A stretch of 64,000 nt of DNA, from contig OX639992.1 of assembly GCA_951828515.1 (NCBI GenBank), positions 1,826,008-1,890,007 on the forward strand, given 5' to 3'. The notes beneath the pieces are model-generated. The model was given only the letters and a program-made list of their open reading frames with translations. It was not told where the DNA came from and did not search any database. The position numbers were made by a program, and so were the translations under genes. Shown here piece by piece: positions 1 to 60,497 of the stretch (position 1 is its first letter; every line of letters starts with the position of its first letter). Origin of the DNA: an uncultured Poribacteria bacterium. Lineage in GTDB: Bacteria > Poribacteria > WGA-4E > WGA-3G.

Positions 1-192
1 TTTAATTTTACCTTACGGACTTTTAATTTTACCTTGCGGGTAAGTAACGCACTTTGGAACTTTACGCTTTCCGTGTTTGAGTCGTTCTCTACTTCGTTAC
101 GAACTTGGGTCTTGAGGCGAGGCAAGACATATCGCCTTCGGCTATAGGCTGCCGTCTCTGGCTCAGTTTTTCAAGATCCCACATAGAGCGAA

Positions 193-762
193 CTACTCAA
201 ACAGGTGCGCGACTGGACAGGTAAAACCCGGTATGACATCCTCACCAGTGAGTATATCATCACGTGTGAGCATCTCAATATCCGTCTCAGAACGATATAC
301 CGTTACGGTTTGGGAAACAGGCTCAAGCACCCAGACGAGACGGGTTCCGGCGTTCAAATATGCGAGAGCCTTCTCGACAACACGAGATTGGACATCTGAG
401 GGAGAAACGACCTCAACCGCTAGATCAGGTGGTATAGGAAACCCTTTTGTTTTGTCGCCCGTCAACCGTGCAGTCGAAACAAATGCGACATCAGGTTTCA
501 TTACACGTTCCCCAACCCGAAATGTGATCTCTGCAGTGTACAGACGACCCAGTTTATTTTGATACACATACGCGTCCAAGTATCGAATAACATTGACACT
601 AATTTCACCATGCTCTCTCGACGGTGGTGGCATTGGTACTAATTCTCCCTTAACATATTCATACCCCTCCACATCATGCTCGAGAAATTCCTCCAACGTC
701 ATCTTGACACTTTCTGGCGGACGTATTCCCTGCTCAACTTCGTGGATTTCTTGTTGCTTCAT
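193..762 (-). CDS. Uma2 family endonuclease (DUF820, putative restriction endonuclease-like)
   Basis: 189 aa ORF with the C-terminal PDLAVEVVSPS motif and overall layout typical of Uma2/DUF820. A GGAGG RBS lies 8 nt upstream of the ATG at 762. Confidence 0.7.
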   Translation of the reverse strand: MKQQEIHEVEQGIRPPESVKMTLEEFLEHDVEGYEYVKGELVPMPPPSREHGEISVNVIRYLDAYVYQNKLGRLYTAEITFRVGERVMKPDVAFVSTARLTGDKTKGFPIPPDLAVEVVSPSDVQSRVVEKALAYLNAGTRLVWVLEPVSQTVTVYRSETDIEMLTRDDILTGEDVIPGFTCPVAHLFE

Positions 763-874
763 GCTTTTAATCCCTCCGTATAGAAAGTCACCAGTGTGTT
801 AAAGTCCAAGCACCTTTGAATAGGAAAGGCAAGAAGTCTAATGTCTGTTTTACCCGTCGATCTTCAACTGGATC

Positions 875-2107
875 CTAACCAATTTCCGTCATCAACTTCC
901 GAAAAGCGTTGAGTTGCGGGGCAATGATATGGGATGTATCTGTTTTGTTCTCAAGTGCTTCAACGGTTTTGAGTCCGTTGCCTGTGATGGCAAGAACCGT
1001 TGGTTCATCGGGTCGGATGTGCCCGCTCTCTATCAATTTTTTCGTGGCGGCGAGTGTTACACCGCCTGCGGTTTCGGTGAAGATACCTTCTGTGGAAGCA
1101 AGAAGTTTGATCGCATCCACGATTTCAATATCGGTGGCATGTTCGCCGACACCGCCGGAATTTCGGACAGTATCAACAGCATAGATGCCGTCTGCGGGGT
1201 TTCCAATAGCAAGCGATTTAGCGATTGTGTTCGGTCTAACAGGTTTCACAAAATCGCCATTCTCTTTGTATGTATTGACGATGGGTCCACAACCTTCGGC
1301 TTGGGCGACATGTATTTTAGTGTTCGGTTTATCTATTAATCCCAAAATGTGGAATTCCTTTAAAGCTTTGCCAATCTTTGTGATAAGAGAACCACCGGCG
1401 GCAGGTGCGACGATATGTGCGGGTGCCTTCCAACCGAGTTGTTCGATCAGTTCAAAACAGAGAGTTTTCGAGCCTTCAGCGTAGAAAGGGCGGATGTTGA
1501 TATTAACGAATGCCCAGGGATAGACCCCACCGATTTCACTGCAGAGTCGGTTGACCTCGTCATAAGTACCGGTGATACCGACAACTGTAGGACCATAAAC
1601 GAGGGATGCAACGACCTTACCAACTTCGAGATCTGCGGGGATGAAAATGAAGCAATTCAATTTCGCGATAGCAGCGTGTGCGGCTACAGCGTTGGCGAGG
1701 TTGCCAGTGGAGGCACAAGAAACAGTATCAAAATCGAATTCTTTTGCTTTGCTTAAGGCGACTGCTACAACTCGGTCCTTAAAAGAAAAGGTCGGATGGC
1801 AGACGGTATCATCTTTGATATAGAGTTCCTTGACTCCAAGGGCATCTCCGAGATTTTTAGCTCGAATGAGAGGTGTAAATCCGGTGTTCGTGCCATCTGT
1901 TGGTTCACCATCTACCGGCAGGAGATCTGCATAACGCCACATGCTTTGTGGACCGTTTTCTATTGAACACCTTGAAATAGATTTTTGTATCTCCTCATAG
2001 TTATAGTCTACTTCCAGGGGCCCGAAACAGAACTCGCAAACGTGAAGAGGTTCTTTGGGATACTTCTCACCACATTCGCGGCATTTGAGCCCTAATACTT
2101 TTTCCAT
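875..2107 (-). CDS. thrC: threonine synthase with N-terminal zinc-ribbon
   Basis: 410 aa. It has an N-terminal CxxC...CxxC segment, a PLP-lysine motif SFKDR, and the glycine-rich loop of the fold-type II PLP family. The start is preceded by the conserved leader CCGCAAGGAAAATTAAAAT-ATG. Confidence 0.85.
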   Translation of the reverse strand: MEKVLGLKCRECGEKYPKEPLHVCEFCFGPLEVDYNYEEIQKSISRCSIENGPQSMWRYADLLPVDGEPTDGTNTGFTPLIRAKNLGDALGVKELYIKDDTVCHPTFSFKDRVVAVALSKAKEFDFDTVSCASTGNLANAVAAHAAIAKLNCFIFIPADLEVGKVVASLVYGPTVVGITGTYDEVNRLCSEIGGVYPWAFVNINIRPFYAEGSKTLCFELIEQLGWKAPAHIVAPAAGGSLITKIGKALKEFHILGLIDKPNTKIHVAQAEGCGPIVNTYKENGDFVKPVRPNTIAKSLAIGNPADGIYAVDTVRNSGGVGEHATDIEIVDAIKLLASTEGIFTETAGGVTLAATKKLIESGHIRPDEPTVLAITGNGLKTVEALENKTDTSHIIAPQLNAFRKLMTEIG

Positions 2108-2130
2108 ATTTTAATTTTCCTTGCGGTTCG
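2108..2130 (-). promoter_or_regulatory. conserved translation-initiation leader CCGAACCGCAAGGAAAATTAAAAT immediately 5' of thrC ATG
   Basis: The same motif recurs at 1..46 (two copies), 2278..2303, 34029..34055 and 60341..60362, each abutting the ATG of a minus-strand gene. Confidence 0.5.
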
Positions 2131-2467
2131 GTCAGGCAAGTCTGAACCTTTGCGTGCCTTTGCGTGTATCTGGAGGAAACGCCCAAGCAAAACCCCTCCA
2201 TTTCACTACGGACTACAGGCTTCGCAAACGAGGTTTACAACCCTGTCCTCTGCTTACTGACTGCCGACCCCTATTCCTAATTTTCCTTGCGGTTCGGTCA
2301 GGCTGGTTAGGATTTTGACGATCCTCATCGTAATCCAGCCCGGCACGTTGTTTGGGCTTACGTTTTTGGTACTATTAAGATCGTGTGCCCTCGACACTTC
2401 CTTCACAACCCGAAAACGACGACTTCACGAATGAAAGAAGTCGTCGTGGCGTACCATCATCAGAAGA

Positions 2468-3799: not shown

Positions 3800-3801
3800 T
3801 A

Positions 3802-5111: not shown

Positions 5112-5531
5112 ATGAAACCTTATGAATACGTCGAACACACGGCTGATATGGGACTACTGGTTAGAGGGAAAAGTCTGCCTAATCTTCTGAAAAACGCGGC
5201 ACAGGGACTCTTTGAAACGATAGCGGTCGTGGATACAATTGATGAGACAGACTCGGTCGAGATCCACCTTACGGCTGAATCTGTGGAAGATCTCTTCGTC
5301 GGATGGCTTGACGAACTCATCTTTCAGCACGAAACGAAGGAGATATTTTTTAAACGCGCCGACATCAAAGACTGTAGTGAAACAGAGGTATCAGCGACGG
5401 TCTACGGTGAACCGACAAATTTCGATAAACACGAGGTTTACACCGAAATTAAGAGTGTTACGTATCATCAGTTGCAAGTCGTGCGAAAGTGTGATGGTAG
5501 CTGGTTTGCTCAGGTTATTTTCGATCTCTGA
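5112..5531 (+). CDS. archease
   Basis: N-terminal YEYVEHTADMGL is the archease signature (HTAD) and the size is ~140 aa. GGAG sits 8 nt upstream of the ATG at 5112; the ORF track start at 5097 is the alternative. Confidence 0.8.
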   Translation: MKPYEYVEHTADMGLLVRGKSLPNLLKNAAQGLFETIAVVDTIDETDSVEIHLTAESVEDLFVGWLDELIFQHETKEIFFKRADIKDCSETEVSATVYGEPTNFDKHEVYTEIKSVTYHQLQVVRKCDGSWFAQVIFDL

Positions 5532-9309: not shown

Positions 9310-9336
9310 GGCGAGGTCAGGAAACCTCGCCAGCGG
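9310..9336. repeat. REP-like hairpin GGCGAGGTCAGGAAACCTCGCCAGCGG
   Basis: Member of a family of at least 10 copies sharing GGCGAGGTT-loop-AACCTCGCC-AGCGG. Confidence 0.65.
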
Positions 9337-19240: not shown

Positions 19241-19267
19241 GTAAGTCCTAAGATCTTCAGGACTTAC
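19241..19267. repeat. perfect hairpin GTAAGTCCT-aagatcttc-AGGACTTAC built from the MITE TIR sequence
   Basis: 9-bp stem with a 9-nt loop; the arms are the TIR motif in inverted order. Confidence 0.5.
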
Positions 19268-19573: not shown

Positions 19574-20251
19574 CTAAAAAAGTTGCTGGGCTGCCTGGAG
19601 GCGTTCGGGAGAGCCGATATCTATCCAATCGGGGTCGGTTTTAAGAACATGAAGGTTTTCTAATTTCGGAAGGACATCGTAGGAGAGAGAAAACACGTCG
19701 CTATCGGGAAACGATCGAGCAATTTTGCTGTTGAAGAGGTAGACACCGGCATTGATATACCCACTTTGGTATGTGGTAGGTTTTTCCAGGAATGCCGTAA
19801 TCTGCCCTGTATCCGAAGAGATGATTTCACCATAAGGACGGGTGTCATCCACCCAAACAGATAGCAGTAAACCTGCCATGTCCTCTCGAAATGTAGATAC
19901 CATTTCGTTGAGCGAGAAATCTCGCCACAGGACATCCCCGTTCAACACAAAGAACGGGGAACTCTGTATGTACCGCATTGCGTTTTTGATAGCACCCCCG
20001 GTGTCAAGTTTTTTATCTTCTTTACAATAGCGAATGGAAATGCCATTGTAAGACTCTCCGATGGTGTATTGGAGCACATCATGGAGGTGCCCAGTCGCGA
20101 GGATGAGTTCTTGGACTCCAACTTCCTTCAGGAATTCACACTGCCATTGTAGAATAGAACGGTTTTTGATTTTTAGGAGAAGTTTGGGGGTATGTTTGGC
20201 GGTGGCCCCCAGGCGAGTCGCATGTCCACCGCATAAAATGATTGCTTGCAT
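19574..20251 (-). CDS. sugar-phosphate nucleotidyltransferase (NDP-sugar pyrophosphorylase family)
   Basis: MQAIILCGGHATRLG N-terminal nucleotide-binding motif; 225 aa. Confidence 0.75.
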   Translation of the reverse strand: MQAIILCGGHATRLGATAKHTPKLLLKIKNRSILQWQCEFLKEVGVQELILATGHLHDVLQYTIGESYNGISIRYCKEDKKLDTGGAIKNAMRYIQSSPFFVLNGDVLWRDFSLNEMVSTFREDMAGLLLSVWVDDTRPYGEIISSDTGQITAFLEKPTTYQSGYINAGVYLFNSKIARSFPDSDVFSLSYDVLPKLENLHVLKTDPDWIDIGSPERLQAAQQLF

Positions 20252-29645: not shown

Positions 29646-29659
29646 CTCTCTACCTCCTC

Positions 29660-29779
29660 AGGACTTACGCAAAATTGGCTTTCATGCCAAAATTGAAGGG
29701 ATATTCCCGAAGAAAGCGCAATGAATTGCGCTACTACGAACCAAAGACCGCATGAAAACGGGTCAACTGCGTAAGTCCT
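29660..29779. mobile_element. MITE-like element (~120 bp) with 12-bp terminal inverted repeats AGGACTTACGCA / TGCGTAAGTCCT
   Basis: It is bounded by perfect TIRs and is intergenic. A near-identical copy (~95% identity) lies at 53575..53694. Confidence 0.7.
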
Positions 29780-29947
29780 ACCTCCTTTTTGAAGGAGTAA
29801 CTTATAGGCGTATGTGGACGGAAACGGAATAGCCGCTATCCCTCACAAATTAGGGATTTATACTACAGTAACGCGGATAGGGTACAGGAAGGTTGCAGAA
29901 AGTGCAATTCTTTGGAAATGTTGTGTGGTTACAATAAATTTGTAATG

Positions 29948-33054: not shown

Positions 33055-33111
33055 TTTAACGTTTCTCCTTTATTCATTTTCAGTTATCGGTTTTCAGTGG
33101 TTAACTGTCAT

Positions 33112-33281: not shown

Positions 33282-34028
33282 CTACAACGATAGTTCGGGA
33301 TCAGATTTCCTGTGATTAAATTGCACGGGATCTTCACCGTGAACGACGATAAGTTTGTGTTCGGGCGCATCCCAATCGAACACTTTGACAATCGGCAGGA
33401 TGACCCGAACCGCTAAACCGATGCGTCGTTTGTCAGAACGATTTGCCTCCGAGTGATGCAAGGTGCGCTCATTAAAAAGGACAAATTCGCCGGGTTGCAT
33501 TTCAAGGTTGACAATAGTGGTGGTATCAATGAACCCGAGATCGCCCATTTGATTGAACGCCATGTCCGAGGTCGCTTTCACGTGTGGGACCACTTTTCGG
33601 TGTGAGCCGGGAACGATCTGGAGACAACTATTTTCTAATGTTGCGGAATCGACAGCAATCCACGCAGAAATAATAATCGGAGGTTCAAGGGGCCAGTAAT
33701 TAAAGTCTTGATGCCACGGAATCTCTTTCGCGCCCGGTTCTTTGATGAAAAAATTCGTCCGCCAGAGCAGAAGATCGGGTCCGTAGAGAGATGCCATCCG
33801 TTTGACGATCGCTGGATGTGTGGCGAGATTATGAATCAATGTAGAGTCAAGATGGCGGTTGTGCGCCAATTGGTTGTGATCCGGCGGTGCAGTCTCAAGG
33901 ACTGTCTCTATTTCCGAATGCATGTTGAACATATCTTCAGAACTACAAAGTTTGTAAGGACCGAGGTAACCCTGCCGCCAAAACTGTTCCCTTTCTTCGG
34001 CACTCAATGCATGATTTCCGTTCTGCAT
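33282..34028 (-). CDS. phytanoyl-CoA dioxygenase (PhyH) family Fe(II)/2OG oxygenase
   Basis: WHQDFNYWP (HxD) ... later His. 248 aa. Preceded by the conserved leader GCAAGGAAAAATTAAAAA-ATG. Confidence 0.75.
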   Translation of the reverse strand: MQNGNHALSAEEREQFWRQGYLGPYKLCSSEDMFNMHSEIETVLETAPPDHNQLAHNRHLDSTLIHNLATHPAIVKRMASLYGPDLLLWRTNFFIKEPGAKEIPWHQDFNYWPLEPPIIISAWIAVDSATLENSCLQIVPGSHRKVVPHVKATSDMAFNQMGDLGFIDTTTIVNLEMQPGEFVLFNERTLHHSEANRSDKRRIGLAVRVILPIVKVFDWDAPEHKLIVVHGEDPVQFNHRKSDPELSL

Positions 34029-34202
34029 TTTTTAATTTTTCCTTGCGGTTAGATAACGTACGTTTCAAATTTGATGTCCGTTCCATAAATCCGCCTGCGC
34101 CGTTGTTGCAGGCTATAGGTTCCGTACAAATTCTGAGAATCATTATGGTCTTGGTCGGAACGTCGTGGAAAGCAGACAGAGGACATACATTTATAGTAAA
34201 GC

Positions 34203-37604: not shown

Positions 37605-37637
37605 AACTATTATCAACCTATAAACAAGGAAAACTAA

Positions 37638-40430
37638 ATGTCAATTTCAAATAGTAAACAGTATTTCTGGTACATTGCCGCCATTTTATTTAGCATTGCA
37701 TCAGTGATACCAACGGCTGTCAGTGCAGACACACTCTCAGTCGTTGTTCAAGATCAGAATGGAAATGCTATATCAGAAGCAAAAGTACAAATTGGAAACC
37801 AAGAACAAACAACTGACGAATCAGGAACTGCCACGTTTAGCGATGTCACAGACGCACAGTCAGTGACTGTAATAGCAATCGGATTTTCGAGTAAACGCAT
37901 TAATACCACTGCCGGACAAACTGAAGCAATAGTCAATCTTGCTCCGATTCAAACGATTGAATCCGTTGTAGTCGTCGGGACCCGGAGTATAGGTAGGCGA
38001 GCTTTACAAGCCTCCGTTCCAATAGAAGTCGTTAACAGGGAACAACTCAGCCTTACCGGTCAATCTGAGACAGGGCGTGTGCTTCAGATGTTAGTCCCCT
38101 CCTTCAATTTCTCAAGTTCAAGCATTAGCGATGGCACAGATGCCCTGCGTCCAGCAACACTGCGTGGCTTGGGACCTGACCAGACGCTTGTGCTTGTCAA
38201 TGGTAAGCGTCGTCACAAAAGTGCGTTGTTGCACGTTAACACGTCGGTAGGACGTGGGACCGCTGGAACGGACTTCAATGCGATTCCATCCGCGGCGATA
38301 GAGCGTATTGAGGTACTTCGGGATGGCGCGGCGGCACAGTACGGCTCCGATGCTATCGCTGGTGTTATCAACATCGTGCTAAAAGATGACGTTGACACAG
38401 GCGATGCCGACATCTATTGGGGACAAACATACGAAGGCGATGGCGACACATGGAACGGTAACGCCAACTACGGCATGAAAGTCGGCGAATCCGGTTTCCT
38501 CAATCTCACCGCTGAATGGCGCGATAGAAAACGGACGAACCAGGCAGGTCTTACGGGCGAACGGCAGTATGACTGGATAGATGTCGACCAAGGCAGACCT
38601 CCGGATAAAATGCTTGAAATTGAAAATGATGATGGAACTGTAACCGAAAAACCGGTATGGTTTGACCCGCGCGAATACACTTTTGAACGGCAGAACTTCC
38701 GCATTGGAGATGCCGACTCTTCACAAAAAATTGGATTTTATAATTTTGGACTTCCACTCGCCGCGGGTTTAGAACTCTATTCTTTTGGTGGGCACTCTTC
38801 ACGCCAAAACAACAGTGCCGGTTTTTACCGCCGAGCCAACCAAGCATCACGGACTGTCACCGAAATCTATCCCGACGGGTTCCTACCGGAAATCAATACC
38901 GACGTTGGGGACACATCCATTGCCTTAGGTATAGCATGGACGCATGAAGCGACCGACCTGAATGTCGATGCCAGTATCAATCACGGCTTGAATACATTCG
39001 ACTTTTTGATTTCTAACTCACTGAATGCCTCCTATGGTGCGAGCAGTCCGACCTCCGCGGATGCGGGTGGATTTGAGCTTTCGCAAACGGTGTTTAACTT
39101 AGATGTCACCTATCCACTGGACTACCAATCCTCACTGATGAACCTCGCAGGCGGTGTCGAGTTCCGTCGAGAAGGTTACGGCATCCACGCTGGCGAACCG
39201 CTTTCATGGATTAACGCTGGACTTGGGGCACCGGGTGCCACTGGCGGTATCCAAGTATTCCCCGGTTTCCGACCCGATAACGAATTGGACGAAAGTCGAA
39301 CCAATATTGCAGGTTATGCTGATTTTGAATCCTATCTCAGTGGACAACCCGGAGCAGGTCTTCTTGTCGGGGCAGCGGTGCGCGGTGAGCAGTATAGCGA
39401 CTTCGGTACCACCGTCACAGGAAAAGCGACGGCTCGCTATGACTTGACGAAACAGATTGCGGTTCGTGCGGCGGGCAGCACAGGTTTCCGGGCACCTTCA
39501 CTGCATCAACTCTACTTCAATAACATCAGTACGCAATTCTTGGTAGATGCGACGGATCTTGATGGTGACGGCGATACAACCGAAGTGTTACCACGCGAAC
39601 TCGGCACGTTCCGTAACGACAGCGATGCTGCACGTGCACTCGGGATACCTGAACTCAAAGAGGAAACCGCATTTAACGTCTCCGGTGGTTTCGTGTTGAA
39701 ACCGCTTGAGAAGATGTGGCTCACAGTAGACGGTTTTCTCATCCAAATTGATGATCGCATCGTTCTGAGTGGTAGTTTCAGTGCCGATAAAATTCCAAGC
39801 CTCATCGCGGCAGGGGCAAGCAGCGCACAGGTGTTCACAAACGTCGCACAGACACGCACCCAAGGCGTGGATGTCGCAGCGGGTTATCTCCACGCTTTCG
39901 ACGATGAATCGCTTCTTAATCTGAAGGTTGCGTTCACATGGGCAGATACCGAAGTTATCGGTGCCGTGGATGCGCCAGAAATCCTCATCGGGCTTGAGGA
40001 GACCCTCTTCCCTTCACAGGATCGCTCCATGATTGAGGAGTGGCAGCCGAACACCCGAATCAACTTCAGTGCAGATTACATCATCGGCGATCTCACCATC
40101 GGTGGTGCTTTGCGCTACTTCGGGAGTTACACCGTCCAAGAGGGAAGTGGTGCCGATCCGGCACGGCAGACTTACGGCGGGAAATGGCTTACCGATGTCC
40201 AGAGCAACTATCAACTCAATGAAGGGCTTTCATTGACTATCGGCGTGAACAACTTATTTGACCAACTGCCCGATCTCAATGAAATCGGTCAGTCGCGGGC
40301 TGGAACATTAGAGGATAGCACAGGACATGTCATTGTGGACTCGCCTGGCGTTTTCACGTATTCCAGAAGGTCGGCACCTTTCGGTTTCAATGGCGGACTT
40401 TACTACGCGAAACTATCCTATAGTTTCTAA
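37638..40430 (+). CDS. TonB-dependent outer-membrane receptor with N-terminal carboxypeptidase-regulatory-like domain
   Basis: Signal peptide, then a CarbopepD_reg-like stretch (VVVQDQNGNAISEAKVQIGNQEQTTDESGTATF). Plug region with TonB box. C-terminal barrel ends YYAKLSYSF (terminal Phe). Confidence 0.85.
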   Translation: MSISNSKQYFWYIAAILFSIASVIPTAVSADTLSVVVQDQNGNAISEAKVQIGNQEQTTDESGTATFSDVTDAQSVTVIAIGFSSKRINTTAGQTEAIVNLAPIQTIESVVVVGTRSIGRRALQASVPIEVVNREQLSLTGQSETGRVLQMLVPSFNFSSSSISDGTDALRPATLRGLGPDQTLVLVNGKRRHKSALLHVNTSVGRGTAGTDFNAIPSAAIERIEVLRDGAAAQYGSDAIAGVINIVLKDDVDTGDADIYWGQTYEGDGDTWNGNANYGMKVGESGFLNLTAEWRDRKRTNQAGLTGERQYDWIDVDQGRPPDKMLEIENDDGTVTEKPVWFDPREYTFERQNFRIGDADSSQKIGFYNFGLPLAAGLELYSFGGHSSRQNNSAGFYRRANQASRTVTEIYPDGFLPEINTDVGDTSIALGIAWTHEATDLNVDASINHGLNTFDFLISNSLNASYGASSPTSADAGGFELSQTVFNLDVTYPLDYQSSLMNLAGGVEFRREGYGIHAGEPLSWINAGLGAPGATGGIQVFPGFRPDNELDESRTNIAGYADFESYLSGQPGAGLLVGAAVRGEQYSDFGTTVTGKATARYDLTKQIAVRAAGSTGFRAPSLHQLYFNNISTQFLVDATDLDGDGDTTEVLPRELGTFRNDSDAARALGIPELKEETAFNVSGGFVLKPLEKMWLTVDGFLIQIDDRIVLSGSFSADKIPSLIAAGASSAQVFTNVAQTRTQGVDVAAGYLHAFDDESLLNLKVAFTWADTEVIGAVDAPEILIGLEETLFPSQDRSMIEEWQPNTRINFSADYIIGDLTIGGALRYFGSYTVQEGSGADPARQTYGGKWLTDVQSNYQLNEGLSLTIGVNNLFDQLPDLNEIGQSRAGTLEDSTGHVIVDSPGVFTYSRRSAPFGFNGGLYYAKLSYSF

Positions 40431-40569: not shown

Positions 40570-43368
40570 ATGTTAATTTTAAGCAATATACGTTACTTCT
40601 GGCACATCGCCATCATTTTATTCGGCATCACATTGATGATACCGATGGCAGCCAATGCCGATATACTTAAAGTAGTCGTTCAAGATCAAAATCGGAAGGC
40701 TGTTCCAGAAGCAAAAATTCAGGTTGGCAATCAAGAACAAACAACAGATGACTTTGGGACCGCCACTTTTAGCGATATAGCAGATGCAGAATCGCTAACT
40801 GTAACAGCAATTGGATTTCTGAAAAAACGAATTAATATCATTTCGGGGCAAACCGAGACCACAGTAATACTGGCTCCCATCCAAACGATTGAATCTGTTG
40901 TAGTCGTTGGAACTCGGAGTATGAGCAGACGAGCTCTGCAGGCTCCTGTCCCGATAGAAGTCGTTAACAGGGAACAACTCAACCTTACGGGTCAATCTGA
41001 AACGGGTCGTGTGCTTCAGATGTTAGTACCCTCCTTCAACTTCCCAAGTTCAACCATTAGTGATGGCACTGACGCGTTGAGACCCGCGACTTTGCGGGGT
41101 TTGGGACCTGATCAGGTGTTGGTACTGATCAATGGTAAACGTCGCCACAAAAGTGCGTTACTTCACGTAAACAGTTCGGTCGGTCGTGGCACTGCCGGCA
41201 CAGACTTCAACGCGATTCCTGCCGCGGCGATAGAACGTATTGAAGTACTCCGAGATGGTGCAGCGGCACAGTACGGCTCCGATGCCATCGCTGGTGTTAT
41301 CAACATTGTGCTGAAGAACGATGTCGATAAAGGCGATGCTAACATTTATTGGGGACAAACTTATGAAGGTGACGGAGATACGTGGAGTGGAAATGTGAGC
41401 TACGGAACGAAAGTAGGAGATTCCGGCTTTCTCAACTTAACAGCGGAATGGCGTGAACGTTATCGGGCAAATCGCGCTGGACTCACCGGGACGCGACAAT
41501 ACGATTGGGTAGAAGCGAATCAAGGCAGAGCACCTGATGCTATACTTGAGGTAAAGGATACAAATGGTAATGTGACAGGTGAAAAACGGGTCTGGTTTGC
41601 CCCACGCGAATATCATTTCAATCGGAAAAATCTCCGGGTCGGGGATTCTGACGCCTCACAAAAGGTTGGGGTTTACAATTTTGGCTTGCCGCTGACGGAA
41701 GGATTAGAGTTATATTCATTCGGTGGTTATTCCACGCGCCAAAACAACAGCTCAGGTTTTTATCGCAATGCCAAAGATGTTAGCCGTAACGTGAAAGCGA
41801 TCTATCCAGATGGTTTTCTCCCCGAAATTAACACAATGATTGAAGATGTATCCATTGCTTTGGGAATGGCTTGGAACCACACCTCAACAGATTTGAATGT
41901 TGATGTCAGTATCAATCACGGTCTGAATACGTTTGACTTTTTCGTTTCTAACTCTCTGAATGCATCCTATGGGGCTGCGAGTCCAACTGTCGCTGATTCC
42001 GGTGGCTTTCGACTCGATCAAACCGCTTTTAATGTAGATGCCACCTATCCGCTTATGTATCAGTCTTCACTGGTGAACCTCGCAGGGGGTGTCGAACTCC
42101 GTAGGGAAGGCTACGGTATTCGAGCGGGTGAACCTGTTTCTTGGCTCAACGCAGGTCTCGGTGCAGAAGGTGCCGCTGGCGGTATTCAGGTATTTCCCGG
42201 CTTCCGACCGGACAATGAAGTCGACGAAAGCCGAACCAATATTGCAGGCTATGCGGACTTCGAATCCTACTTAAGTGGCCAACCCGGAACAGGTCTTCTC
42301 GTCGGTGCTGCAGTGCGTGGGGAACAGTATAGCGATTTCGGTGCAACTGTCACAGGCAAAGCGACAACCCGCTACGAGCTGACAGAACAGGTTGCGGTCC
42401 GCGCTGCAGGTAGCACAGGTTTCCGAGCCCCTCTACTCCAACAACTCTATTTTAACAACATTAGCACACAATTCAAGGCGGACAATAACGATGCTGACGG
42501 CGATGGGGACACAACAGAACTACTGCCTTTCGAGATAGGGACATTTCGGAATGATAGTGCCACGGCGCGCACGCTCAACATTCCAGAGCTCAAAGAGGAA
42601 ACCTCCGTCAATGTTTCAGGCGGCATTGTGGTCAAACCCATTCAAAATCTATGGCTGACGCTTGATGCCTTTCAGATTCATATTGATGATCGGATTGTGC
42701 TGAGTGGAAGTTTCAAGGCTGATGCTGTCCCTGTCTTAGCACAAGCGGGTGTTAACCAAGCACAAGTCTTTACAAATGTCGGACAAACACGCACCCGTGG
42801 TATCGACATAGCTGCAGGTTACCTACATGCTTTCGACAACGAATCCATCCTGAATTTCAAGTTCGCGGCAACGTGGACGGACACTGAAGTTATTGGCGAT
42901 GTGGAAGTTCCCGGTCCTATTCTGATTGGCTTTGAGGAAATCCTTTTTCCGGAACGAGAACGCTCCATCATTGAGGAATGGCAACCGAACACGCGCATAA
43001 ATTTCACAGCAGATTATATTATTGGTCCCCTCAAGCTTGGATCTGCTTTACGCTACTTCGGAAGTTACACCGTTCAAGAAGGAAGCGGAGAGAGTGCGCA
43101 GCGACAAACCTATAGTGGAAAATGGCTCACTGATATCCAAGGGATATATCAACTCAGCAACTCTTTAGCACTGACGTTAGGGATAAACAATTTTCTTAGT
43201 CAACTACCTGACCTGAATGAGGTGGGACAAGCGCGTGGTGGCACCCTCATAGATAGTACTGGAACAGTTATTGCGGATTCACCAGGCGTTTTCACGTATG
43301 ACCGTAGGGCTGTCCCTTTCGGTTTTAACGGTGGATTTTACTACGCGAAGGTATCCTACAGTTTTTAA
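40570..43368 (+). CDS. TonB-dependent outer-membrane receptor (tandem paralog of 37638..40430)
   Basis: About 70% identical along its length to the upstream receptor, with the same domain order. It ends YYAKVSYSF. Confidence 0.85.
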   Translation: MLILSNIRYFWHIAIILFGITLMIPMAANADILKVVVQDQNRKAVPEAKIQVGNQEQTTDDFGTATFSDIADAESLTVTAIGFLKKRINIISGQTETTVILAPIQTIESVVVVGTRSMSRRALQAPVPIEVVNREQLNLTGQSETGRVLQMLVPSFNFPSSTISDGTDALRPATLRGLGPDQVLVLINGKRRHKSALLHVNSSVGRGTAGTDFNAIPAAAIERIEVLRDGAAAQYGSDAIAGVINIVLKNDVDKGDANIYWGQTYEGDGDTWSGNVSYGTKVGDSGFLNLTAEWRERYRANRAGLTGTRQYDWVEANQGRAPDAILEVKDTNGNVTGEKRVWFAPREYHFNRKNLRVGDSDASQKVGVYNFGLPLTEGLELYSFGGYSTRQNNSSGFYRNAKDVSRNVKAIYPDGFLPEINTMIEDVSIALGMAWNHTSTDLNVDVSINHGLNTFDFFVSNSLNASYGAASPTVADSGGFRLDQTAFNVDATYPLMYQSSLVNLAGGVELRREGYGIRAGEPVSWLNAGLGAEGAAGGIQVFPGFRPDNEVDESRTNIAGYADFESYLSGQPGTGLLVGAAVRGEQYSDFGATVTGKATTRYELTEQVAVRAAGSTGFRAPLLQQLYFNNISTQFKADNNDADGDGDTTELLPFEIGTFRNDSATARTLNIPELKEETSVNVSGGIVVKPIQNLWLTLDAFQIHIDDRIVLSGSFKADAVPVLAQAGVNQAQVFTNVGQTRTRGIDIAAGYLHAFDNESILNFKFAATWTDTEVIGDVEVPGPILIGFEEILFPERERSIIEEWQPNTRINFTADYIIGPLKLGSALRYFGSYTVQEGSGESAQRQTYSGKWLTDIQGIYQLSNSLALTLGINNFLSQLPDLNEVGQARGGTLIDSTGTVIADSPGVFTYDRRAVPFGFNGGFYYAKVSYSF

Positions 43369-50481: not shown

Positions 50482-50565
50482 AAGCTCCGCACGCCGCAAT
50501 TCAGATTGACGACAACGCAGACTCCTGCTAAAATTAAGAGAAACCCACAGACACGGAGGGGACGC

Positions 50566-51393
50566 ATGAAACCTCTTAACGACTTCGCTCTCAAACAACG
50601 AAAATATCTGCCGACCTTCACAAAAGCCACCGGAAAACCTACCGTTTACATACCAGGCTACCCGTATGAGGACGAGCACCCTATACCCGCAACCGGATTC
50701 CACGGAGAACAGATCAACATCTTGTATGAACAACTCTCCAGTTATTTCGCAACGCACACCCATATCTATATCGGCGTTGACAACTTCATCTATTACCGTG
50801 AAGGCGATACCACGAAGAGCGTCGCACCCGATATTTATGTCGTCTTAGGCGCAGCAAAATTTCCACTCCGCAGGAGTTTCTACACTTGGGCAGAAGGTGC
50901 GGTGCCAACGGTGCTTTTTGAGTTTTTGTCGGATTCGACAGCCGATGAGGATCGAGAAGAAAAGGTACAGATATATCTACGGGATATAGGGGCACAAGAG
51001 TATTTCATCCATCAACCCGAGATGGAGAAACCTGCAGAGTTTCGCGGGTGGCGGCGGGACCCCTCAGGCGCGATTGTTGAGATGCCCGCGGATGCACAGG
51101 GAGATTTATTTAGCGAGTCCTTAAATTTGTCGTTCCGGTGGACAGATCAACATCATAGCCATGTCCGGTTGTTACGTCCTTATCTGCCGGATGGCACTCC
51201 GATCACGACTGCTATAGAAGAGCGGAACCTTCGCGCAGCAGCGAAACTGCGTGCGGAAGAAGCAGAAGTCCGTGCGGAAGAAGCAGAAGTCCGTGCGGAA
51301 GAAGCAGAAGTCCGTGCGGCAGCAGAAGCGCGCCGACGGCAGGCATTAGAACTTGAGTTGGAACACCTTCGCCGCCGACTCACAGACCGATAA
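50566..51393 (+). CDS. Uma2 family endonuclease (DUF820) with C-terminal heptad tandem repeat (RAEEAEV x3)
   Basis: PDIYVVLG...PTVLFEFLSDST is the Uma2 core. A GGAGG RBS lies 7 nt upstream of the ATG at 50566. The C-terminus is coiled-coil-like and encoded by a 21-bp x3 tandem repeat. Confidence 0.7.
   Translation: MKPLNDFALKQRKYLPTFTKATGKPTVYIPGYPYEDEHPIPATGFHGEQINILYEQLSSYFATHTHIYIGVDNFIYYREGDTTKSVAPDIYVVLGAAKFPLRRSFYTWAEGAVPTVLFEFLSDSTADEDREEKVQIYLRDIGAQEYFIHQPEMEKPAEFRGWRRDPSGAIVEMPADAQGDLFSESLNLSFRWTDQHHSHVRLLRPYLPDGTPITTAIEERNLRAAAKLRAEEAEVRAEEAEVRAEEAEVRAAAEARRRQALELELEHLRRRLTDR
51250..51330 (+). repeat. in-frame 21-bp tandem repeat (CGTGCGGAAGAAGCAGAAGTC x3 + partial) inside Uma2 gene
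   Basis: Encodes RAEEAEV x3. Confidence 0.7.
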
Positions 51394-53366: not shown

Positions 53367-53574
53367 ATAGAAGGGACAAGCAGTGAAATGGAACTTGTGT
53401 TGGTTCTCCTTCTACCACTTCTCGTAAAGAAATCCATTGACCATCGGAAGTTATAGCCACTGGACGACTCCAATGGTCTTCGTGAGGCATTGGTGCGTTA
53501 TTCGCCATGAGTGTCTCCTTAAGGAATCAGAACCCAAACTATTTTTTTTAAACTGGTTGATATTTCTAAGTATC

Positions 53575-53694
53575 AGGACTTACGCAAAATTGGCTTTCAT
53601 GCCAAAATTGAGGGGATATTCCCGAAGAGAGCGCAATGAATTGCGCTACTACGAACCAAAGACCGCACGAAAACGGGTCAACTGCGTAAGTCCT
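53575..53694. mobile_element. MITE-like element, second near-identical copy (TIR AGGACTTACGCA)
   Basis: It shares ~95% identity over 120 bp with 29660..29779 and has the same TIRs. Confidence 0.7.
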
Positions 53695-53867
53695 AAAGTA
53701 TTATACGATAAAACGAAATAAAAGTCGAAAATAGGACTGGGTGCCACTATGTGAAAAATTTGACTTTTCGTAGTGTATATGTTATACTTTAAAATGAAAT
53801 TTTTCAGGCAGCTACACTTAAGATAGGGTTGTAGAAGCGGTATTGTGCGTTGTTATCTGGATGAAAA

Positions 53868-54842: not shown

Positions 54843-55011
54843 GGAGTCTGCCTACTCTATGCTGTGGACGGCAGAGCGGAGTCTGCCTACTACTATGCTG
54901 TGGACGGAAACCGAACGGAGTCTGCCTACTACTATGCTGTGAACGGAAACCGAACGGAGTCTGCCTACTACTATGCTGTGAACGGCAGAACGGAGTCTGC
55001 CTACTACTATG
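54843..55011 (+). repeat. tandem repeat, 5 units of GGAGTCTGCCTACTACTATG(CTGTGGACGG + 6-9 nt); last unit provides the RBS and ATG of cysH
   Basis: Five copies of a ~28-bp core with 6-9-bp variable joints, read directly from the sequence. Confidence 0.7.
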
Positions 55012-56209: not shown

Positions 56210-56315
56210 TGACTATTGCTTGCCAATGCCAGTAACGGTCAGAGACTCCGATGTATTGGCTGTCAGAGAGATTTTCAGCGTTTCTTTCTGACAGCTGACG
56301 GTTAATTGCTATTCG

Positions 56316-56780
56316 ATGACAACTTTGAAACCAGAAATCCTCAGCGAGATTTGTGACCACGCGAAATTGGAGTTTCCCAATGAATGTTGCGGTATCATTC
56401 TGGGGACTGAAACACAAGTATTTGTTCGGAAATGCCGGAACATACAGAATGAATTGCATCAGGAAGATCCAGACACATATCCGCGCGATGCCCGCACAGC
56501 GTACGTCATACACCCTGACGATTTAATCGCCATTCACAAAGAGTCTGACACACAGCAACGGCAGATTAAGGCGTTCTACCACTCACACCCAAACCACGAG
56601 GCGTACTTCTCCGAAAAAGACAAGGCAGATGCAACCGTATGGGGTGAACCTGCTTATCCGGATGCTACATATTTGGTTATCTCAATTTACGACACCGAAA
56701 TACGCGCGGTGAAGGCTTTCGCATGGGATGAAACAGGGAAAGATTTTATTGAGATCAAGGCACCGTTTGGAGAAACCTAA
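56316..56780 (+). CDS. mec: JAMM/MPN+ metalloprotease (Mec+/QbsD-like, sulfur-carrier C-terminal processing)
   Basis: EFPNECCGIILG (Glu) ... FYHSHPNHEAYFSEKD gives the HxHx7Sx2D JAMM zinc motif; 154 aa. Confidence 0.75.
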   Translation: MTTLKPEILSEICDHAKLEFPNECCGIILGTETQVFVRKCRNIQNELHQEDPDTYPRDARTAYVIHPDDLIAIHKESDTQQRQIKAFYHSHPNHEAYFSEKDKADATVWGEPAYPDATYLVISIYDTEIRAVKAFAWDETGKDFIEIKAPFGET

Positions 56781-56828
56781 TACAGTAGAAGCGATTTCCC
56801 GAACACGACCCTCATTGAGGCGAGAACC

Positions 56829-59177
56829 ATGCAACGCTTGCGAGTCCTTTTGGTGAAGCTTGCGAACCAAAACTTGCGCTACAAATGTCAGCAATTGATG
56901 TCGGACCTGCGCGTTGTCAAAACCTCTGGATTCAGGTCCTACGTTGGACTTCTCACCTTTTCCGCCGCTTCCCTCGCCATTGCCTTAGGAATCACCCTCC
57001 AAAAATACATTGTTTTTGAATACCACTCAAATTCGGGTATCGTCGGCTGGCTCAGTGTTCATGCGTATCCGAAACAGCAGGAATACTTCTTCTATCTGCT
57101 GGCACTGCTTGGTATCCCCACAACAATATATCTGTACTGGCTCGCGTGGTGTGTCTATTCGCGCTGGTGCGCCCAACGAACCGCCCAACCGATACAGCGT
57201 GTGCTGAAAGCAAACGCCTTGGCATCCATTCCGTTGTGGCTTTGCTGGCTACAGGTCTACTCTATCGGTCAGGGTATACTAACAGGCTTATTCGTACCGA
57301 TGAGTCTATCCATTTTGCTAAAATTGGTACTGTTGTATAAGCGGTACTTCCCTACACTGTGGACTCCAGATATTTCTGATGACAGAGACACCCACAACGC
57401 AGCCTGCAACAACGGCGCAGGCGGATTAATAGAAAAGCAGCCTAATCCTGAACCTCACTTTATAACTCCGCAAGGTACAATTAAAAAACGTGGTGGACTT
57501 GAATACCTTATCCTTCCCATTTTCATCTATCTCCTTATCTACTCTGGAAACATCCACGGCAAAATAGATTTATTTCATGAGGGTGAACGCCTCGCACCTC
57601 TCAATGAAATGCTGCACGGCGCGGTGCCGTTTCGGGACATCTATATCCAGCATGGACTCTTCCAAAACGCTTATCTGGCATGGTTGGGTAGCCAATTCTT
57701 TGAACCAACCCTATTCGGTATGCGTTCAATGGAGGACATATTGGACCCACTGGGTTATATCGCTCTCTACGTGCTCGGTTTGCAAGTATTCCGAGGTAGA
57801 TTTTTGACCGCTTTTATCTGTGTGATTATTGCCTCTGGGACAGAGTTTTGGGTAACTGCAAGACACAGCCTGGGCTTAATTAGTTTCGCCTTCGTAGCGA
57901 ATTCCCTTACGCACTTCCAAAAGACTCGCCCGAACCAGGTCCCTACATTTGTATGGAAATTGCTCCTCGCTGGGATCTCCACGAGTTTGGCGTTTTGGTA
58001 TAGCACTGAAATCGGGCTCTACACGCTGGGTGCCATCGGATTATTCCTGGTTATATATGTGTTCCAAGGCGGCTTTGGAACAGAGAATGGAAGAGGGCGA
58101 GGTTGGAAACCTCGCCAGCGGGAGGGAAGGGGAAGAGAATACCTGATCCCCTTAATCAGTTATGGCTGCGGGGTGCTGTTAGGTTTTCTCTCGGTAGGTA
58201 TCTATTTTTTATCGCACGGTGCCTTGGATGATGTAATCTGGAATTCCTATATCCAGTGTCGCTATCAACTCGCAACGTGGGGACTTGCTTTTCCATCTCT
58301 ATCGGAAACACTTGCCCTCTTGTCAACAGAGGGTTGGAACGCTTTCGTTTTCAGCGAAGGATTTCGATGGTACCTGCCCGTTTGCATCTTTTTGATCGTC
58401 GCGGCGTATCTGACATATCGGTGCTTATGTGGAACTGCATCAGAACCCAACGCGATGAAACTACTGCTGTTATTGCTCGGTGGCATTGCATTCTTCCGAA
58501 CTGCATTGGGACGTTCAGATGGTGGACATCTGATTTACGGCGCAACCTTTTTATGGCTGCTCTGTCTATTCCCATTAGAGAGAGGCATTTCCAAAATGTT
58601 CCGTGCGTGTCTATCGTTTTTAAGAGGGAACGGACGTTGGCAGTCCGCATTGAAGGCAGTGTGGGTGCTAATTCCGATGGCAATATTCTGTTGGTATGTA
58701 GGGCAAGCGCATCAGCCGTTGGCAGGTTTCCGAGAGAAATGGCAAAGATTGCGTCAGAACCCGTTCAAACAACGCGTTGTAACGCAGGAATTAGTGCGCG
58801 CAGGAAAGGTGGACATCCCAGACGATCAAGTTCAACAGGTTCAAAAGGTGGTCGCTTATATCCAAGAAAATACAGCACAGAACGAAAAGATTTTCGATTT
58901 TACGAGCCAGGGTGCCTACTACTTCTTCGCAGACCGACTGAGCGTTACCCGATTCCATCAAGTCTCGTACGCATCAACACCTGAGATGCAGCAAGAAGTT
59001 ATCTCAGCCCTTGAAAAGGACAAAACGCGTTTAGTGATCTTTAAAACCGGAGGTTGGTTCGATGCTGTTGACGATATTCCTGTCGAGGAGCGGCACCCCC
59101 TGATCGCGGAATACCTGCAGGCGAACTATGAACTCGCGGTGAACATTAACGAAACGGAGATTTTGCTTCGGAGATAA
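56829..59177 (+). CDS. large polytopic membrane protein, unknown function (contains an in-frame REP-element insertion)
   Basis: 782 aa with many TM helices and a GAGG RBS. Residues ENGRGRGWKPRQREGRGRE are encoded by a REP-like hairpin at 58096..58121. Confidence 0.5.
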   Translation: MQRLRVLLVKLANQNLRYKCQQLMSDLRVVKTSGFRSYVGLLTFSAASLAIALGITLQKYIVFEYHSNSGIVGWLSVHAYPKQQEYFFYLLALLGIPTTIYLYWLAWCVYSRWCAQRTAQPIQRVLKANALASIPLWLCWLQVYSIGQGILTGLFVPMSLSILLKLVLLYKRYFPTLWTPDISDDRDTHNAACNNGAGGLIEKQPNPEPHFITPQGTIKKRGGLEYLILPIFIYLLIYSGNIHGKIDLFHEGERLAPLNEMLHGAVPFRDIYIQHGLFQNAYLAWLGSQFFEPTLFGMRSMEDILDPLGYIALYVLGLQVFRGRFLTAFICVIIASGTEFWVTARHSLGLISFAFVANSLTHFQKTRPNQVPTFVWKLLLAGISTSLAFWYSTEIGLYTLGAIGLFLVIYVFQGGFGTENGRGRGWKPRQREGRGREYLIPLISYGCGVLLGFLSVGIYFLSHGALDDVIWNSYIQCRYQLATWGLAFPSLSETLALLSTEGWNAFVFSEGFRWYLPVCIFLIVAAYLTYRCLCGTASEPNAMKLLLLLLGGIAFFRTALGRSDGGHLIYGATFLWLLCLFPLERGISKMFRACLSFLRGNGRWQSALKAVWVLIPMAIFCWYVGQAHQPLAGFREKWQRLRQNPFKQRVVTQELVRAGKVDIPDDQVQQVQKVVAYIQENTAQNEKIFDFTSQGAYYFFADRLSVTRFHQVSYASTPEMQQEVISALEKDKTRLVIFKTGGWFDAVDDIPVEERHPLIAEYLQANYELAVNINETEILLRR
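58096..58121. repeat. REP-like hairpin GGCGAGGTTGGAAACCTCGCCAGCGG located inside a CDS
   Basis: Same family; inserted in-frame within the 56829..59177 membrane protein gene. Confidence 0.6.
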
Positions 59178-59275
59178 TATTATTAGTTATCAGTCGTCAG
59201 TCATCAATTTTCAGTTAAGAGATGATTTCCAAACGAAAACGGTTGTCGTTTAACCGAAACCGCTTTAATCAATAA

Positions 59276-60340
59276 CTACTTTTGTTGTTCAATGAAGATT
59301 CGGTAGATGTCCTCAAAGAGTCTGACATCTGTGAGTGTATCTTCGGCTGAAGATCGGAAGGGTTCATTGTTGCGGACATTCGCCACAAAGTATTCCGCTT
59401 CCCTGTGGTATGCCCAGGTCCAACTCGGTCTCGGAATCGGACGTGTGATTTCCTGTTCTTCTCCGGCTCGATAGACTTCAACCTCTGCAGGCGTATTTTT
59501 CAAAAGCAACGGTGGTGCCCACGTATGAACCCATCCGTTCTCAAAGTAGATTTGACTATGCTCATCCCACCGGTAGTGAGAGACATGTCCGGTCTCTAAC
59601 GTCACACGGATGCCATCCATATCGAAGATAACAACACCAGAATATCCGTTAGGGTCTAAATCGACGACTCTGATGCTAACGTTGTCGCCGGCATCAAGAA
59701 ACCAGCGCATCAGATTAATATTGTGCGTGTACTGTTGTAAATATCCTAAATAAGAACCGCGCCACTGTTCGGGTATCCACTCTGGGGTTTTGACAGGTGC
59801 GCTCGGCTTTGTTTCTGTTGTCCCATCCATGTGGGTATCGAGATTACACACCCAGTCGCCACCGAATCCGTGATTCCTTGCATACGTCAAGCGTCCGAGT
59901 TCATCTGTTTCTCGGAATTGTGAGACCTTTGCCTTGACGATCTCGTTTCCGGCATCGTACCGTTTCATATAACCGACCATCAACTTTTTGCCAGACGCCT
60001 GCGATGCTGATACAATAGCTTCGGCTTGTTCAACGGAAACAGCCATCGGTTTCTCCATGAAGACGTGCTTACCTGCTAAAAGGAGATCCTTCGCGATTTC
60101 ACCTTGTAATGCAAAGTCGGCAGATACGGCGACTGCTTCAATATCGGCATTTTGTGCGAGTTCACCGTGGTCCCGGTAAAGTTGAGGAATACCAAAACGG
60201 CTTTGGACTTTCTTTCCCAACTCCGTACGGACCTCTGCGAGTCCAATGAGTTCACAGTCTGGAATGCTTGCAAAATTTGGGATGTGGACCTTCTGTGCCA
60301 TGAACCCACAGCCGATATAACCGAGTCGAATGTTTTCCAT
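59276..60340 (-). CDS. Gfo/Idh/MocA family oxidoreductase
   Basis: IRLGYIGCGFMAQKVHIPNF Rossmann start, EKPMAVSVEQAE motif. Preceded by the conserved leader variant GGGCAAAATTAAAAT-ATG. Confidence 0.8.
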   Translation of the reverse strand: MENIRLGYIGCGFMAQKVHIPNFASIPDCELIGLAEVRTELGKKVQSRFGIPQLYRDHGELAQNADIEAVAVSADFALQGEIAKDLLLAGKHVFMEKPMAVSVEQAEAIVSASQASGKKLMVGYMKRYDAGNEIVKAKVSQFRETDELGRLTYARNHGFGGDWVCNLDTHMDGTTETKPSAPVKTPEWIPEQWRGSYLGYLQQYTHNINLMRWFLDAGDNVSIRVVDLDPNGYSGVVIFDMDGIRVTLETGHVSHYRWDEHSQIYFENGWVHTWAPPLLLKNTPAEVEVYRAGEEQEITRPIPRPSWTWAYHREAEYFVANVRNNEPFRSSAEDTLTDVRLFEDIYRIFIEQQK

Positions 60341-60497
60341 ATTTTAATTTTGCCCTAACGGGAGGTATCAGGTGTTGTGTGGCAACGTCCCCGAAATCCA
60401 AAGATCCGCTTTTCGCCTTCGGCTACAAGCTGCCACCGTCCGCTAAGTTTTAAACTTACCCGTACGGGATGGTCCTCCAGATAATTCAAAAAGATGT

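Follow-up and report, generated by a model that had tools for sequence, protein, structure and literature searches.

Mycobacterial interspersed repetitive units (MIRUs) are apparently mobile sequences that insert at start codons and carry an internal open reading frame (ORF) coupled to the downstream gene (PMC12548453). They are the closest analogue of a repeat element that we found in a 64-kb stretch of DNA from an uncultured Poribacteria bacterium (contig OX639992.1, positions 1,826,008 to 1,890,007; hereafter the window, meaning this whole stretch). Like the poribacterial element, MIRUs are short (tens of nt to about 100 nt), dispersed and intergenic, often stand head to tail, follow the orientation of the flanking genes and end at the downstream start codon. 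The small ORF of MIRUs is coupled to the next gene by a -4 overlap, whereas the poribacterial element has no conserved ORF; instead it has a covarying 5' hairpin and an invariant tail of CCGCAAGG plus an A/U-rich run, and it occurs in another phylum and also in phages. From comparison of the sequences we propose, with a probability of roughly 0.6, that it is a lineage-specific interspersed repeat of about 97 nt serving as a portable 5' leader and translation-initiation region.

Other described systems resemble the element in part. The REP/BIME sequences of the RAYT (Y1) type are abundant, intergenic and co-transcribed with genes, and have (G)TAG immediately 5' of an imperfect palindrome; similarly, the model consensus of the poribacterial element begins AaccguAG, with 99% conservation of the A and 89% of the G in ...TAG, and the covarying stem of its hairpin (P1) follows directly 3'. 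REPs are typically 20-40 nt long, form inverted pairs (REPINs), are near-identical within a genome and have no fixed relation to start codons, whereas the poribacterial element is about 97 nt long, has diverse covarying stems and a 3' tail, and forms direct repeats (17 head-to-tail versus 4 inverted pairs among neighbouring copies less than 300 nt apart, the element otherwise being single). Correia elements of Neisseria and miniature inverted-repeat transposable elements of the ERIC/YPAL type are about 100-150 nt long, co-transcribed, and are said to be able to alter the expression of their neighbours; their terminal inverted repeats form a long hairpin, and TA-like target duplications accompany them, whereas the poribacterial element is polar, tied to start codons and without terminal inverted repeats (when the first 30 nt of the consensus were compared with its last 35 nt, no inverted match exceeded 4 nt). 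Rickettsia palindromic elements (RPEs) can be translated in frame as an extra loop, as one window copy would be, but they are mainly intragenic and palindromic, and an intragenic copy is exceptional here. A/U-rich enhancers and insulators of the 5' untranslated region (UTR), such as S1-dependent leaders, T7 gene 10 and T7 intercistronic units, also combine a hairpin with an unstructured A/U-rich ribosome-binding site (RBS) before AUG, and T7-type leaders are likewise placed between genes of phage late operons; these are single-locus sequences, not a family of hundreds of homologous copies. Unlike a riboswitch, the element has no covarying multi-helix fold and no coherent set of downstream genes.

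The initial annotation of the window had described a nearly identical leader of about 25 nt in front of several unrelated genes. Alignment of the 110 nt upstream of each exact match showed that this leader is only the 3' end of the element, with a tail, CCGCAAGG(N)AAAATTAAAA, that is almost invariant. The exact-tail pattern TTTTAATTTTN{0,1}CCTTGCGG was scanned against 185,579 species genomes binned as 8-kb blocks, and a covariance model of the element (R1) was used to search both strands of the window. A profile search of 110 poribacterial loci yielded 171 copies; matches to the exact pattern numbered 141. From 5' to 3', the element consists of an (A)ACCGTAG end preceded by an A-rich junction, hairpin P1, a poorly conserved middle of about 40 nt and the tail. 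P1 takes the form GCCC-GTAAC-GAA-GTGGA-GGGC or GCCTGC-AACAACGGC-GCAGGC, with shorter variants and one subfamily carrying an insertion of about 21 nt. It is followed by CGGATATACGG, CGGATTTAAG or CGACTCGAA and about 35 variable bases, and ACCGAA, TTTCT or CTTAT stands immediately before the tail. Repeat periods vary from about 86 to 190 nt with spacers, P1 insertions and arrays.

In a structural alignment of 66 copies, the pairs of P1 were 98% paired, with 74 double-sided changes compared with 20 ± 3.5 in shuffled alignments, and shifted registers gave only 31-51% pairing. P1 also keeps G-U pairs in the sense strand. RNAalifold, applied to all copies and to three subfamilies, supported only P1 (5 pairs) and a 2-bp mini-hairpin and found no consensus structure in the middle; an outer helix (CGTA/TACG or CGAG/CTCG) is present in some subfamilies only, and the tail is unpaired in predicted folds. 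Among 50 copies outside the seeding pattern, CCGCAAGG was exact in 44, with the mismatches in these copies falling in the A/T run, and the middle had only 0.67 bits per position. CCGCAAGG can fold as a two-base-pair stem capped by a GCAA tetraloop, and 3 of the 6 variants retain a GNRA loop (GTAA, GAAA). No conserved internal small ORF was found: the longest upstream ORF running to the nearest stop had a median length of 0 codons, 18% reached 25 codons, and the variable middle shifts the reading frame between copies. The similarity over 97 nt and the covarying hairpin thus indicate common descent of the copies rather than convergence.

The tail ends 0-3 nt ahead of a start codon in over half of the copies. 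In the exact-match set, 70 of 141 had an ATG 0-3 nt 3' of the tail that opened an ORF of at least 60 codons. Among the profile copies, 87 of 171 adjoined an ATG and 10 of 171 a GTG or TTG opening a long ORF, compared with 6.8% and 10.3%, respectively, at 20,000 random positions; placement is thus not random with respect to gene starts. The 52 copies outside the seeding pattern that entered this count included 20 next to an ATG. The orientation was that of the downstream long ORF in 139 of 165 copies (84%). The upstream neighbour was co-directional in 106 copies, at a median gap of 82 nt and, in a tenth, of 6 nt or less, and divergent in 35. The downstream proteins with matches (97) represent 110 Pfam families; PhyH (8) and xylose-isomerase-like TIM barrels (7) are the most frequent, and no functionally coherent set was found among these 97 proteins and the phage structural genes described below. 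The link of the element to start codons and phages is unusual and well supported.

The tail lies where ribosome-binding regions lie in this genome. Among the ATG-start ORFs of the window, 15 of 37 have GGAG or GAGG 5-13 nt upstream (median 9). Aligned on AAGGAG, the AAGGAA of the element lies 9-11 nt from the ATG, like native sites, and between tail and ATG there is no room for another Shine-Dalgarno (SD) sequence. A comparison of orthologs points the same way. Six genomes share the gene order AMP-ligase / ADH / PhyH / ADH_N_2. The window and a 91% identical ortholog have the element before PhyH (in the latter at 84 bits, adjoining the ATG); with the model filters off, it was not found in four orthologs of 70-79% identity. 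At the same position the element-free orthologs read ggaaggaggaaatgcaacATG, aaaggatgtcagtATG or gagtgaggataacacgctATG, with the sites ggaaggagg, aaagga and gagtgagga. Because these relatives use an ordinary SD, the tail is the sole candidate ribosome-binding region in the element-bearing genomes.

In the mechanism that we propose, the tail would be co-transcribed with the downstream gene and act as its translation-initiation region. AAGG(A) would provide short SD pairing at the native spacing of about 9-11 nt, and the unpaired A/U-rich AAAAUUAAAA up to the AUG would be a ribosome landing site of the S1 type; A/U-rich stretches favour binding of the 30S subunit and S1. P1 would work at the RNA level, by insulation, stabilisation or marking of a leader processing point, because it covaries and keeps its sense-strand G-U pairs and because the copies are polar to genes. 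CCGCAAGG may be recognised by something beyond SD pairing, since it is conserved beyond what that pairing needs and can form the GCAA mini-hairpin. New copies may arise by transposition through a hypothetical enzyme or by recombination between conserved tails. A stronger version, in which CCGCAAGG and the A/U run form a portable ribosome-recruitment module read by the 30S subunit or a dedicated factor, giving Poribacteria, and the phages that copy it, a second and largely SD-independent start of translation on about a tenth of their genes and spreading via gene boundaries, seems improbable to us. CCGCAAGG is identical to the 900-loop hairpin of helix 27 in Escherichia coli 16S rRNA (CCGCAAGGTTAAAACTCAAATG), where a similar A-rich run follows, and helix 45 and its flanks (AACCGTAGGGGAACCTGCGGTTGGATC) look like the 5' end of the element together with P1; the rrsH matches are at L124 967-990 and 1571-1605 and may be coincidental. 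Derivation of the element from 16S rRNA was rejected, as the model gave only non-significant matches to E. coli rrsH (E 1.8-2.6 for helix 45/P1 and helix 27/octamer).

The exact tail pattern occurred in at least 113 blocks. Among the matches listed, 105 were labelled Candidatus Poribacteria and 4 'uncultured bacterium', 3 of the latter with full elements. Also among the matches listed, the full element was not found in the Vagococcus, Bdellovibrionales and Deltaproteobacteria blocks or in that of one unlabelled metagenome-assembled genome (MAG), and these four were discarded as isolated chance matches. Genes for the terminase large subunit, portal, major head, head-maturation protease and neck proteins lie on the 33.9-kb IMG/VR contig IMGVR_UViG_3300012932_000188, together with seven full copies of the element (71-93 bits). 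These copies are 65-86% identical to each other and have covarying P1 stems, and all seven adjoin start codons (six ATG, one GTG). Three of these phage copies share an upstream block, TTGTCCG(C/T)TGTCCAAATCGGG(G/T)TTCTGATGA. Four further viral contigs in IMG/VR have full copies, whereas the viral matches L114 and L116 were rejected as chance coding matches. The loci are as follows.

L115 1291-9779: phage copies, IMGVR_UViG_3300012932_000188
L117 1268-4177: phage copies, IMGVR_UViG_3300012932_000188
L129, L131 and L134: viral copies, IMGVR_UViG_2740892559_000001
L135 and L142: viral copies, 3300012947_000033
L130: viral locus
L138: viral locus

To judge from these occurrences, the element is restricted to Candidatus Poribacteria and to phages that would infect them. 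That so compact a phage genome has kept diverged copies where its genes start is an argument for the element being read by the host's expression machinery.

The covariance model found six copies in the window, five on the minus strand and one on the plus strand. By extrapolation from six per 64 kb, a genome of about 5.8 Mb probably has several hundred. The copies and adjoining genes are listed below.

1-21, minus strand: extra tandem 3' tail (CCGTAAGGTAAAATTAAA...), cut by the window edge; its gene lies beyond the window
15-111, minus strand: full copy A, with P1 AAGTTCGTAACGAAGTAGAGAACG and tail CCGCAAGGTAAAATTAAAA (R1 68.5 bits, E 1.4e-12)
112-175, minus strand: partial 5' module upstream of copy A, resembling the 5' portion of the Gfo copy at about 75%
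875-2107, minus strand: thrC-like pyridoxal-phosphate enzyme gene (Pfam PALP 2e-62), putatively served by the proximal thrC element
2105-2216, minus strand: proximal thrC element (R1 43.4 bits over 2103-2203)
2217-2273, minus strand: unique spacer of about 60 nt between the thrC elements, without similarity to any other locus
2268-2365, minus strand: distal thrC element with decayed tail AAAATTAGGAAT (R1 61.6 bits)
33282-34028, minus strand: PhyH dioxygenase gene (Pfam PhyH 1.3e-31), putatively served by copy C
34024-34120, minus strand: canonical copy C, with the GCCTGC-GCAGGC form of P1 (R1 90.8 bits, E 2e-17)
57395-57492, plus strand: copy E, in frame within a 782-aa membrane-protein ORF at 56829-59177 (R1 71.7 bits)
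59276-60340, minus strand: Gfo/Idh/MocA oxidoreductase gene (Pfam GFO_IDH_MocA 7e-22), putatively served by copy D
60336-60437, minus strand: divergent copy D, a short P1 variant (R1 33.2 bits, E 6e-5)

All leader copies reported earlier, before thrC, PhyH and Gfo/Idh/MocA and at the window start, were found again on the minus strand; copy E is new. When up to 3 mismatches were allowed, the 19-mer matched the window three times compared with 0.02 expected. At positions 1-46 there are two tail copies 21 nt apart, and the same 21-nt tail duplication recurs in L021, L026, L094 and L104. The thrC tail, CCGCAAGGAAAATTAAAAT-ATG, lies at 2108-2126 on the minus strand, the ATG being at 2107. The proximal thrC element belongs to the subfamily with the insertion of about 21 nt in P1 (GGGGTTTTGCTTGGGCGTTTCC), and in BLAST it is similar to other copies from about 2216 onwards. 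The second thrC tail exists, at 2274-2303, where it shares 26 identical nt (GCCTGACCGAACCGCAAGGAAAATTA) with the proximal one, although it lies 166 nt upstream rather than the 170 nt given before. Copy C adjoins the PhyH ATG at 34028 with the tail CCGCAAGGAAAAATTAAAAA-ATG at 34029-34048 on the minus strand, and copy D adjoins the Gfo/Idh/MocA ATG at 60340 with CCCGTTAGGGCAAAATTAAAAT-ATG at 60341-60362. The further block said to be shared by the surroundings of copy D and the window start, CGCCTTCGGCTAYARGCTGCC, is exact at both places (133-153 and 60414-60434, compared with 0 expected); it is no separate feature but part of the short-hairpin P1 variant, represented in the module at 112-175 by GCAGCCTATAGCCGAAGGCG. 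The supposedly related leader of the first TonB receptor, AAGGAAAACTAAATG at 37626-37640, is an ordinary RBS and had no R1 match even at E<=10.

No match to Rfam 15 was obtained at the gathering score for the window and 144 kb from 18 loci with at least 25 copies, and at E<=10 nothing relevant was found on copy-bearing stretches. A relation to tRNA or tmRNA was rejected, none being found in the window. A search of the literature on poribacterial RNA motifs, repeats and SD sequences found no description of the element. A 'Poribacteria-1' motif was reportedly described by Weinberg et al. in 2017; a search of that paper gave no hit.

The element is gained or lost between related genomes. At thrC, identity between the window and L089 is about 90% as far as ...CCGCAAGGAAAATTA (...AAAATTA), beyond which the two differ by exactly 166 nt. 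This segment, absent in L089, consists of 60 nt of unique spacer and an element, flanked by the 26-nt tail repeat; the one thrC element of L089 is the ortholog of the distal element in the window. Array size thus differs at thrC (1 versus 2 copies) and likewise between L014 and L024 (2 versus 1). The thrC difference was rejected as evidence of a clean insertion, as repeat-mediated deletion fits equally. No flanking duplication of fixed form was seen, and the thrC junction is ambiguous within its repeated 26 nt. Copy E encodes a segment of 33 residues, about HNAACNNGAGGLIEKQPNPEPHFITPQGTIKKR, found only in the closest homologs and lying within a hypervariable loop; with no clean boundary there, it was not accepted as having an empty site. 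A displaced native SD just 5' of copies, to be expected after insertion between an SD and its ATG, was not found (9% versus a background of 11-16%). Many copies are nevertheless retained at orthologous genes across species, for example in L019/L045, L014/L024, L006/L040/L087, L083/L103 and L005/L112.

Several observations weigh against a leader and initiation function. About one copy in three lies elsewhere than at a start codon. For 20 of the 171 copies, the tail meets a convergent long ORF at its stop, within -6 to +7 nt (for example L095 6629-6634, oriented; L085 5812-5817; L073 3945-3950; L036; L113), and 13 of these 20 supply the final TTT-TAA, the reverse complement of TTAAAA; no convergent ORF was found to read deep into the element. 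Selection for translation initiation is therefore insufficient to explain all positions, which points to an effect of placement or target and suggests that the element prefers A/T-rich gene boundaries. Some copies have a separate canonical SD 3' of them, such as AAAATTAAAAAGGAGA in L005 and L112, and copy E lies inside a coding sequence. Pairing of AAGG(A) with the anti-SD CCUU would amount to 4-5 bp, a weak SD, a standard anti-SD being implied by the native AAAGGAG consensus. Whole copies fold no more stably than shuffled sequence (energy z-scores about 0). The loci were sampled with the exact motif as seed, and ORFs were called by a simple rule on MAG sequence. The function of the element is read only from where the copies lie and is, on that footing, plausible.

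Two observations concern its boundaries. In L017 (RuvC-like, ...AAAATTAAAAAAATAATTCTTGGCATCGATCCGGGC), L107, L059 and L099, an ORF that clearly begins right after the tail lacks ATG, GTG or TTG there and would start at ATA or ATT; these could be genuine near-cognate initiation codons or could reflect errors of the MAG consensus within the A run. In L074, at about 5195-5263 of the oriented minus strand, a copy runs directly up to the 3' end of a tRNA gene encoded on the other strand (ATGGAGCAGACGGGATTTGAACCCG...).

The stops, arrays and in-frame copy fit a selfish or neutral MIRU-like repeat that lands at A/T-rich boundaries (TTAAAA-like sequences, TAA stops) and whose RBS tail only makes insertion tolerable, without benefit to the host. 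Copies are flush with both sense start codons and antisense stop codons, often stand in head-to-tail arrays, vary in presence among syntenic orthologs and in one case lie in a hypervariable protein loop; native RBS spacers in the window are often TTAAAA, TTAAA is mildly enriched 1-20 nt 5' of the copies, and for MIRUs insertion at start codons is reported (PMC12548453). Yet the element has neither terminal inverted repeats, nor a clear target-site duplication, nor an internal ORF for coupling, and no associated transposase was seen, although no search aimed at RAYT genes was made. Moreover, even old, diverged copies and those at orthologous sites keep the tail and the P1 pairing, a sign that each resident copy is under selection, and the phage genome, compact as it is, has its seven diverged copies at start codons without exception. 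We consider a selfish or neutral repeat of this kind improbable. Mobility as such is another matter: among the three readings offered by the initial annotation, a small mobile leader came closest to the evidence, given the dispersal, tandem arrays, gain and loss between syntenic orthologs, in-frame copy and phage occurrence, mobility itself being putative. Somewhat less doubtful, but still unlikely, is a post-transcriptional regulon in which the CCGCAAGG mini-hairpin and A-rich run bind a global regulator (CsrA-, Hfq/Crc- or ProQ-like, or a small RNA) that would co-switch hundreds of mostly catabolic genes, with the repeat as the vehicle of wiring. CCGCAAGG is indeed conserved more strictly than the A/T tail or SD pairing requires, with the GNRA loop kept in half of its variants, the candidate site and the ribosome-binding region overlap, orthologs of different species have kept their copies, and catabolic enzymes and transporters are common downstream (PhyH, xylose-isomerase-like TIM barrels, ADH, Gfo/Idh/MocA, ABC permeases, CstA). 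The factor itself is hypothetical, the genes are heterogeneous, including extracytoplasmic function sigma factors and phage head/neck-module genes, and copies at convergent stops or inside an ORF have no target to control; as for PhyH and the sugar-isomerase-like families, they are simply the most expanded in these genomes.

The other two readings of the initial annotation fared less well. It had suggested a dispersed promoter-plus-leader cassette, whose transcript would start at or in the element. A few features agree with this: -10-like boxes (TAAGAT, TATAAT, TAAAAT) lie 8-14 nt upstream of some copies, a subgroup has a longer upstream block in common (TTCGTCTAACA-N-CTCTTAAGATA), and 35 copies lie in divergent intergenic regions. 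Over 103 solitary copies, though, there was no -10 peak at a fixed offset, judged by a sigma-70-type consensus that may not be that of the host; a -10-like box stood at -22 to -9 in 24 of the 103, which is about background, and only 3 of these also had a -35-like box. In addition, many copies follow a co-directional gene, starts are often 6-40 nt past an upstream stop codon or directly after another copy, and the copies inside arrays and those between genes of the phage structural module cannot each need a promoter. As a general feature such a cassette is very improbable. It is hardly credible that the copies arose without common descent, by convergent selection for an initiation context typical of the lineage. 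The tail does look like native leaders, with a purine-rich SD-like core and an A/T-rich spacer that is often TTAAAA, but the similarity of about 97 nt includes compensatory hairpin changes and subfamily-specific insertions, copies also occur where no start codon exists, and 15 of the 37 ATG-start ORFs of the window use GGAG/GAGG. What stands of this suggestion is the role in translation initiation, supported by the position of the tail; it is not the general context of the genome.

The genome is unusually rich in other short repeats. A copy of a second family, hairpin GGCGAGGTTGGAAACCTCGCC, lies in frame at 58095-58133 in the same ORF as copy E (56829-59177); it encodes about GRGRGWKPRQREGRGRE, a segment present in some homologs only, and is RPE-like, as is copy E. 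A REP-like hairpin family, GGCGAGGTTAGGAAACCTCGCC(AGCGG...), is intergenic at 9310, 11589, 20270, 29273, 29949, 34228/34288/34341 and 37319 and includes 58095; three of its units, in tandem and 53-60 nt long, fill part of the interval from the ADH gene to the PhyH element. Further small dispersed repeats belong to at least four families: AGGACTTACGCAAAAT..., GTCGGGAATCGGAGTTCCCTCCTACA, ATTGTCTGAATCAGGATTTTCAGGATTCAAGGATTTTCAGGATTAT and a 123-nt pair with 98% identity (29658-29780 and 53573-53695). The small repeats are located at 19259, 29660, 33112, 37515, 53575; 4905, 4969, 5004, 9384, 52797; and 19311, 48512, 49550. A 21-nt tandem repeat occupies 51237-51341 within the ORF 50506-51393, and four tandem units of 36-39 nt at 54857-55011 lie immediately upstream of an ATG at 55009. 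Tandem paralogs comprise the TonB-dependent receptor genes at 37638-40430 and 40570-43368 (about 73% identical DNA) and ORFs of about 255 aa at 62029-62814 and 62802-63557 (about 80% identical). The intergenic words TTATCGGTTTTCAGTTA / CCGATAACCGAT and the block GGT(G/T)TTCGTCTAACA-N9-10-CTCTTAAGATA stand ahead of some genes and elements (the elements in L027, L041, L046, L091, L051 and L059; window 33060-33100, 56280-56315 and 61413-61445) and may be promoter or regulator sites of the phylum.

Few bacterial repeats besides MIRUs are known to lie flush with start codons, and the design described here differs from theirs and also adjoins convergent stops. For annotation, the tail marks true start codons and exposes odd ones, such as the ATA/ATT starts of the RuvC-like and other genes. 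As a phylum-specific signature, the element could serve to link viruses to hosts; by this marker, at least five IMG/VR contigs would belong to poribacterial phages. It also raises the question of why the conservation of CCGCAAGG exceeds what ribosome pairing needs. If the proposed function is correct, a sizeable fraction of genes in an uncultivated phylum of sponge symbionts would obtain its ribosome-binding region from one repeat family, which would amount to a natural 'standard 5' UTR part' replacing native SD leaders.

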